The notes under the pieces: model-generated
The model's database searches: none
Told to the model about the DNA's origin: nothing
The model's input: the letters and a program-made list of their open reading frames with translations, nothing else
Position numbers and translations under genes: made by a program
Assembly (NCBI RefSeq): GCF_017348835.2
Contig: NZ_CP071375.1
From: Escherichia coli
GTDB taxonomy: Bacteria; Pseudomonadota; Gammaproteobacteria; Enterobacterales; Enterobacteriaceae
Direction: 5' to 3' (one strand)
DNA length: 64,000 bases
Shown: piece by piece, positions 59,160 to 59,194 of the stretch
Layout: the number at the start of each line of letters is the position of its first letter
Position numbering within the stretch: position 1 is the stretch's first letter

Positions 59160-59175
59160 GTGTAAGCGATTACAC
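59160..59175. promoter_or_regulatory. GalR/GalS operator upstream of galP
   Basis: gtgtaagcgattacac, close match to the gal operator consensus. Confidence 0.5.
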
Positions 59176-59178
59176 TGA

Positions 59179-59194
59179 TGTGATTTGCTTCACA
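59179..59194. promoter_or_regulatory. CRP binding site upstream of galP
   Basis: tgtgatttgcttcaca, perfect TGTGA-N6-TCACA. Confidence 0.55.

Follow-up and report, generated by a model that had tools for sequence, protein, structure and literature searches.

Adjacent GalR/GalS operator and cAMP–CRP site as the very probable core switch of the galP promoter in Escherichia coli

The two adjacent sites considered here, at positions 59160–59194 of the window (the whole 64-kb stretch of Escherichia coli DNA that was analyzed), are set in the metK–galP intergenic region. The coding sequence of metK ends at 58821, and the ATG at 59258 starts a reading frame of 464 aa that matches the NCBIfam sugar porter MFS family (E = 5e-152). 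The 481 bp around the sites are found in 5,425 of 5,426 complete E. coli genomes, each time between metK and galP, and the downstream gene is likewise galP according to RefSeq in 5,425 of the 5,426. The features to which we refer below are, from 5' to 3':

58841–58875, + strand: metK intrinsic terminator found by terminator scan, with a 10-bp G+C-rich stem, a 5-nt loop, and a T-run
58978–58993, + strand: distal GalR/GalS operator CTGAAACCGATTACAC, with one mismatch to the consensus, listed in PMC5110547
59052–59079, no strand assigned: conserved block GTTACAT-N5-TTCAG-N6-CTTAA, seen in the alignment (CTGAA in most other genera)
59160–59175, + strand: proximal GalR/GalS operator GTGTAAGCGATTACAC, a perfect 16-bp gal consensus, listed from ChIP-chip in PMC5110547
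59179–59194, + strand: cAMP–CRP site TGTGATTTGCTTCACA, with both half-sites perfect, a CRP ChIP-seq site of PMC4287617
59216–59221, + strand: putative −10 hexamer TATCTT of PgalP, conserved as TAnnnT in 21 sequences
59219–59241, + strand: single NagC operator CTTAATTCACAATAAAAAATAAC, overlapping the −10 and the predicted start, identical to the site of PMC3098098
59248–59253, + strand: galP Shine-Dalgarno GGAGGG, 5 nt 5' of the ATG, invariant or nearly so in an alignment of 21 upstream regions
59258–60652, + strand: galP coding sequence (galactose:H+ symporter, 464 aa), from the RefSeq annotation and the NCBIfam match

The metK terminator, whose stem is a perfect 10-nt inverted repeat, forms the upstream boundary of the galP control region. 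An Rfam search of the intergenic region returned no known RNA element, its two sub-threshold matches both falling over this terminator hairpin, and the MG1655 RefSeq record carries no regulatory feature annotated in the galP control region. When aligned with MG1655 3087800–3088400, the window places its position 59160 at MG1655 3088186 and is identical to MG1655, base for base, from 58978 to past the galP ATG, so that the control elements of this strain and of K-12 do not differ at all. The differences between the two lie only beside the metK terminator and consist of a 13-bp insertion at about 58873–58885, directly 3' of the terminator, with a few SNPs nearby. At the scale of the species, the 96-bp promoter core is single-copy in 5,425 of 5,426 complete E. 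coli genomes and reaches at least 99% identity in 4,625 of them, whereas positions 58820–59300 reach this level in just 51 of 5,425, which indicates that polymorphism is concentrated outside the control elements.

The proximal operator, centered at 59167.5, is a 16-bp hyphenated dyad, GTGNAANC.GNTTNCAC, without any mismatch to the gal consensus, and the positions 3, 5, 9, and 15 that are genetically critical within this consensus (PMC5110547) are all intact (G3, A5, G9, and A15). The exact consensus, GTGNAANCGNTTNCAC, occurs once in the 64 kb, when 0.00 occurrences are expected from shuffled windows and none of 100 shuffles contained a match. Using a matrix built from the 18 GalR ChIP-chip sites of PMC5110547 from which the galP entries were removed, we found this operator to be the best-scoring GalR site of the window, at 17.0 bits, a value below the median of the training sites (20.0 bits) and inside their range (14.8–23.0). 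The same study lists a galP operator, GTGTAATCGCTTACAC, which is the reverse complement of GTGTAAGCGATTACAC, at MG1655 3088186–3088201, ranks it first both by matrix score (25.1) and, genome-wide, by GalR ChIP-chip signal (115.4, with a peak at 3088194), and reports galP as one of three promoters rising in a galR deletion (PMC5110547). In addition, GalS shares the operators of GalR (PMC3119520), and loss-of-function mutations in galR and galS, which derepress galP, have been repeatedly selected (PMC10519446).

Immediately downstream, the full 22-bp CRP site spans 59176–59197, is centered at 59186.5, and thus abuts the operator without a spare base pair. The exact TGTGA-N6-TCACA core has a single occurrence in the window, when 0.07 are expected and 7 of 100 shuffles contain a match. 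With a matrix trained on the 106 CRP ChIP-seq sites of PMC4287617, here again after removal of the galP entries, this site came first among the CRP scores of the window, its 16.4 bits exceeding those of 87% of the training sites. Furthermore, TGTGATTTGCTTCACA is found verbatim as the site under the CRP ChIP-seq peak at galP in the enterotoxigenic strain ETEC H10407 (PMC4287617), so that both sites are known to be occupied in vivo.

The sequence-only reading from which this work started had placed a gal operator and a CRP site with perfect half-sites upstream of galP and had called this consistent with the known dual control of the gene. Its coordinates proved exact, with GTGTAAGCGATTACAC at 59160–59175 and TGTGATTTGCTTCACA at 59179–59194, and both motif assignments were borne out by the consensus matches and by the published ChIP data described above. 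The two checks that it had set beforehand also came out in its favor: the comparison with curated sites located the operator at its published MG1655 coordinates, with the CRP 16-mer being that of the published galP site, and not elsewhere, and the scoring with position weight matrices, galP being left out, ranked each of them first in the window. The dual control itself is published, CRP being required and GalR inhibiting the CRP-mediated activation (PMC4073488). In contrast, the 4-nt gap that it had claimed between the two 16-mers was miscounted: the gap is of 3 nt (TGA, 59176–59178), and the error probably comes from counting "tgat" and reusing the first t of the CRP site. The distance from center to center, from 59167.5 to 59186.5, is 19 bp.

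Since a score maximum as high as that of either site alone is reached in 8–10% of shuffled 64-kb windows, the significance of the pair rests on its exact consensus, adjacency, location, and conservation. With regard to adjacency, only 2 of 400 simulated windows contained a GalR-like site of at least 14 bits with a CRP-like one of the same minimum score no more than 40 bp away. With regard to conservation, a scan of 298 Gb, in which each species was represented by one genome, used a pattern made of a perfect CRP core and of TGNAANCGNTTNCA placed 2 to 7 nt after it, and gave at least 120 matches, a sample that is biased to loci retaining both motifs, as the pattern needs both, and that says nothing on the share of galP orthologues devoid of them. 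Almost all of the matches listed lie upstream of galP or mglB orthologues, and the handful that do not, from Pseudarthrobacter, Hydrogenophaga, and Lactococcus, resemble the small number of matches that chance would be expected to produce. At least 22 precede a GalP orthologue, with 90% or more amino acid identity whenever the ORF could be recovered, and come from Escherichia, Citrobacter, Enterobacter, Lelliottia, Pluralibacter, Cedecea, Siccibacter, Pseudocitrobacter, and others; none of the matches listed is a Salmonella or Klebsiella galP locus. Although the pattern permitted six spacings, all 22 of the galP-upstream matches listed, from other Enterobacteriaceae, display the 19-bp spacing. 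One locus of E. coli SCPM-O-B-8794 (L065:119-152) carries a natural variant of the composite, in which the operator reads GTGTAATCGATTACAC, a 16-mer with full symmetry, and the CRP site reads TGTGACTTGCTTCACA, both changes being at non-consensus positions (N or flanking the core).

Elsewhere in the window, other high-scoring matches were recorded at 12890–12905, 49587–49602, 49631–49646, and 28809–28823, CRP-like and GalR-like sequences being both represented. The other CRP-like sequences are TGTGATGGGTATCAAA (15.5 bits), CGTGATGCATATTACA, and TGTGATCTACAACACG, the last of which is the published CRP ChIP-seq site of cmtB, and the other GalR-like sequence is TGTGAACGTTGCCAC (15.4 bits).

To go beyond the two motifs on which the scan was based, we relied on a phylogenetic footprint, namely an alignment of 21 galP upstream regions with a mean column identity of 58%. 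Several elements that the pattern did not select appear conserved in it: the distal operator, its 181–184-bp spacing to the proximal one, a TAnnnT motif, part of the NagC site, the Shine-Dalgarno, and the start codon. Within the block CACCTATCTTAA (59212–59223), T59216, A59217, and T59221 are invariant across the 21 sequences, which is the TAnnnT signature of a −10 element, and the center of the CRP site lies 29.5 bp 5' of the first base of this hexamer, as a position of −41.5 would predict. On this basis, we infer a galP transcription start near 59228. Relative to it, the CRP site would be centered at −41.5 (a presumable class II position) and the two operators at −60.5 (proximal) and −242.5 (distal), with the NagC operator over the start itself. 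A generic sigma-70 scan detected no + strand promoter for galP and returned two minus-strand consensus matches, at shuffle level; such a blank is expected of an activator-dependent promoter devoid of a −35 element.

The distal operator starts 182 bp 5' of the proximal one, obtains the second-best GalR score of the window (16.3 bits), and also figures among the galP operators of PMC5110547, where its MG1655 coordinates are 3088004–3088019. It is kept in Enterobacteriaceae galP loci (58980–58991 in the footprint), and, of the 18 species in which the two operators could be located, 17 have them 181–184 bp apart. As for the NagC operator, cttaattcacaataaaaaataac is reported as the galP site, a 23-bp element of the TTAATT...AAATAA type (PMC3098098), and this single site mediates an approximately 5-fold repression (PMC4288165, PMC5401889). 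Its conservation outside Escherichia is partial, the right half being partly kept in the alignment of 21 regions. The initial reading was therefore correct as to the control of galP by the operator and the CRP site and incomplete in that it included neither the distal operator, nor the NagC operator, nor the −10.

Taken together, these observations make it very probable that 59160–59194 constitutes the core switch of the galP promoter, in which CRP activates, GalR or GalS cancels this activation, and the outcome follows an AND logic. Under this model, cAMP–CRP bound to the perfect site centered at 59186.5 would activate, in a class II fashion, a promoter that is otherwise silent, in line with the reported inactivity of PgalP without cAMP–CRP (PMC4073488). 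When galactose is absent, GalR or its isorepressor GalS would bind the operator located 19 bp further upstream and cancel the activation by CRP, such that PgalP would fire only in the presence of both the cAMP and the galactose signals; GalR binding has indeed been shown to inhibit CRP-mediated activation, with both signals needed in an AND logic (PMC4073488).

As to how the repressor may achieve this, the galETK operon offers a close point of comparison. At galETK P1, the operator OE is centered at −60.5 and cAMP–CRP at −41.5, and the GalR–OE complex acts through the alpha-CTD of RNA polymerase (PMC4693257). Both systems have in common the repressor, the 19-bp distance between the operator and CRP centers, the presence of a second operator, and the fact that GalR counteracts a CRP-activated promoter (PMC4693257). 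Because the geometry at galP is the same as that of OE and CRP at galETK P1, GalR at −60.5 likely contacts the alpha-CTD or occludes its docking upstream of CRP, without displacing CRP itself. A GalR loop reaching the distal operator, 182 bp further upstream, probably reinforces the repression, and the 182-bp spacing would then reflect this loop; the NagC operator, being placed over the −10 and the start, probably reinforces it as well. The two systems also differ in several respects. The second operator is upstream at galP (about −242.5, 182 bp away) and inside the gene at galETK, where OI lies at +53.5, 113 bp away, and where the loop is stabilized by HU; the promoter of galP is single and depends strictly on CRP when galETK has an overlapping P1/P2 pair; the core of the CRP site is perfect at galP and the galE site is weak; and the NagC operator over the start is an additional feature of galP with respect to galETK.

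Since the operator (16 bp) and the full CRP site (22 bp) are contiguous, their occupancy could in principle be mutually exclusive, in which case GalR/GalS would repress by competing for DNA and excluding CRP instead of counteracting, through anti-activation, the bound CRP and RNA polymerase. However, co-binding of the two proteins has been described in the literature, and the 19-bp geometry allows co-occupancy at galETK, where GalR acts via the alpha-CTD (PMC4693257). Competition for DNA is accordingly the weaker rival, which we consider improbable, and ranks below anti-activation as an explanation.

The core-switch reading also has to be confronted with the result of the terminator scan, which flagged 59177–59204, where the CRP palindrome is followed by TCTTTTTA. 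The corresponding RNA folds with −9.3 kcal/mol (z = −4.0) and the T-run 3' of the palindrome is conserved across genera, so that the CRP site could be imagined to double as an intrinsic terminator against read-through from metK or further upstream. Yet, the stem consists of 7 pairs only, 3 of them G–C, and such a hairpin arises from any perfect CRP palindrome; a strong terminator already serves metK 330 bp 5' of this hairpin; and the T-run falls in the −35/spacer region, where a promoter role accounts for its conservation equally well. We thus regard a terminator function as quite unlikely, the hairpin being probably a by-product of the palindrome and of a T-rich promoter spacer.

One may further ask whether the proximal operator mainly serves another LacI-family repressor, the binding of GalR/GalS being incidental, given that its TGTAA-CG-TTACA core is common to many LacI-family operators and that its score is lower than that of the median GalR training site. 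This seems highly implausible in view of the strongest GalR ChIP-chip peak of the genome, of the increase of galP in the galR deletion (PMC5110547), and of the repeated selection of galR/galS loss-of-function mutations that derepress galP (PMC10519446). Finally, that the two palindromes are mere chance matches deprived of a regulatory role is next to inconceivable, for even if shuffled windows at times equal either score alone, the exact consensus sequences are hardly ever expected in a window, adjacent pairs are rare in simulations, published ChIP peaks lie on exactly these sequences, and the sites are kept with a fixed spacing upstream of galP across genera.

Beyond galP, the arrangement of a gal operator beside a perfect CRP core upstream of a galactose transporter is also that of mglBAC, in Enterobacterales and Pasteurellaceae. 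In Enterobacterales, the mglB composite has an 18-bp spacing (at least 78 matches) as opposed to the 19 bp of galP. This 18-bp distance from center to center can be seen, for example, at L064:10270-10302 and at the loci L003, L005, L007, and L012; in Pasteurellaceae, it is mostly of 19 bp (e.g., L002, L015, and L050), with 20 bp at one Avibacterium locus (L034). The operator half-sites of mglB, of the TGTAACCG.TTTTCA type, differ from those of galP, and the distance from the CRP site to the first long ORF is about 250 bp at mglB, in E. coli and many relatives, versus about 50–65 bp at galP.

Another difference is the conserved GTTACA block at 59052–59079, present at galP and absent at mglB loci; among the 1.06 Mb of DNA compared, it was found at galP loci only. 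GTTACA does not vary in any of the 20 Enterobacteriaceae species; counted from the start of each operator, the block lies 74–75 bp downstream for the distal one and 107–110 bp upstream for the proximal one, the center of its palindrome (59071.5) being 5 bp off the midpoint between the two operators. Rfam yielded no match for 59052–59079.

Two identities were considered for this block and rejected. As a third gal operator, it would imply the 16-mer TTCACAGTTGTTACAT, which mismatches 6 of the 12 consensus positions and whose left half is not conserved. As a promoter, examined by eye on either strand, it offers no −10 candidate with an A at position 2 and a spacing of 16–18 bp. Nor is the block known to resemble convincingly the motifs of IHF, Fis, ArcA, Cra, or OmpR. 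A possible, albeit doubtful, suggestion based on its position is that the block could be a further cis-element of galP, on which an architectural protein or a third regulator would close or set the GalR loop. Such a role would have its analogue at galETK in the HU site of the loop apex, with the difference that the galP block would be sequence-specific. No name or function for 59052–59079 appears in the literature examined, a corpus to which the primary galP papers of El Qaidi (2009) and Semsey (2007) do not belong, and the block may equally well have been described there already.

The regulation of galP has been studied since 1993 and serves as a model AND gate. The regulatory region of E. 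coli K-12 galP is said to have been described by Weickert and Adhya in 1993, by Semsey et al. in 2007, and by El Qaidi et al. in 2009, and the transcription start was reportedly mapped in these same primary papers. Qian et al. (2016) is also among the descriptions of the region. The region analyzed here is the same element as that of K-12, since its operators match those of PMC5110547, its CRP 16-mer that of PMC4287617, and its NagC 23-mer that of PMC3098098. The control of galP by GalR/GalS, cAMP–CRP, and NagC is therefore already known in detail, and nothing in it is biologically new; what the case provides is a positive control, in which a real, experimentally validated dual-input promoter was correctly recognized from its letters alone. 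The unannotated conserved block between the operators, which is the only loose end, is modestly useful in this respect. So are the spacings that are conserved across genera, namely an operator-to-CRP distance of 19 bp for galP and of 18 bp for the mglB of Enterobacterales, and about 182 bp between the two galP operators.
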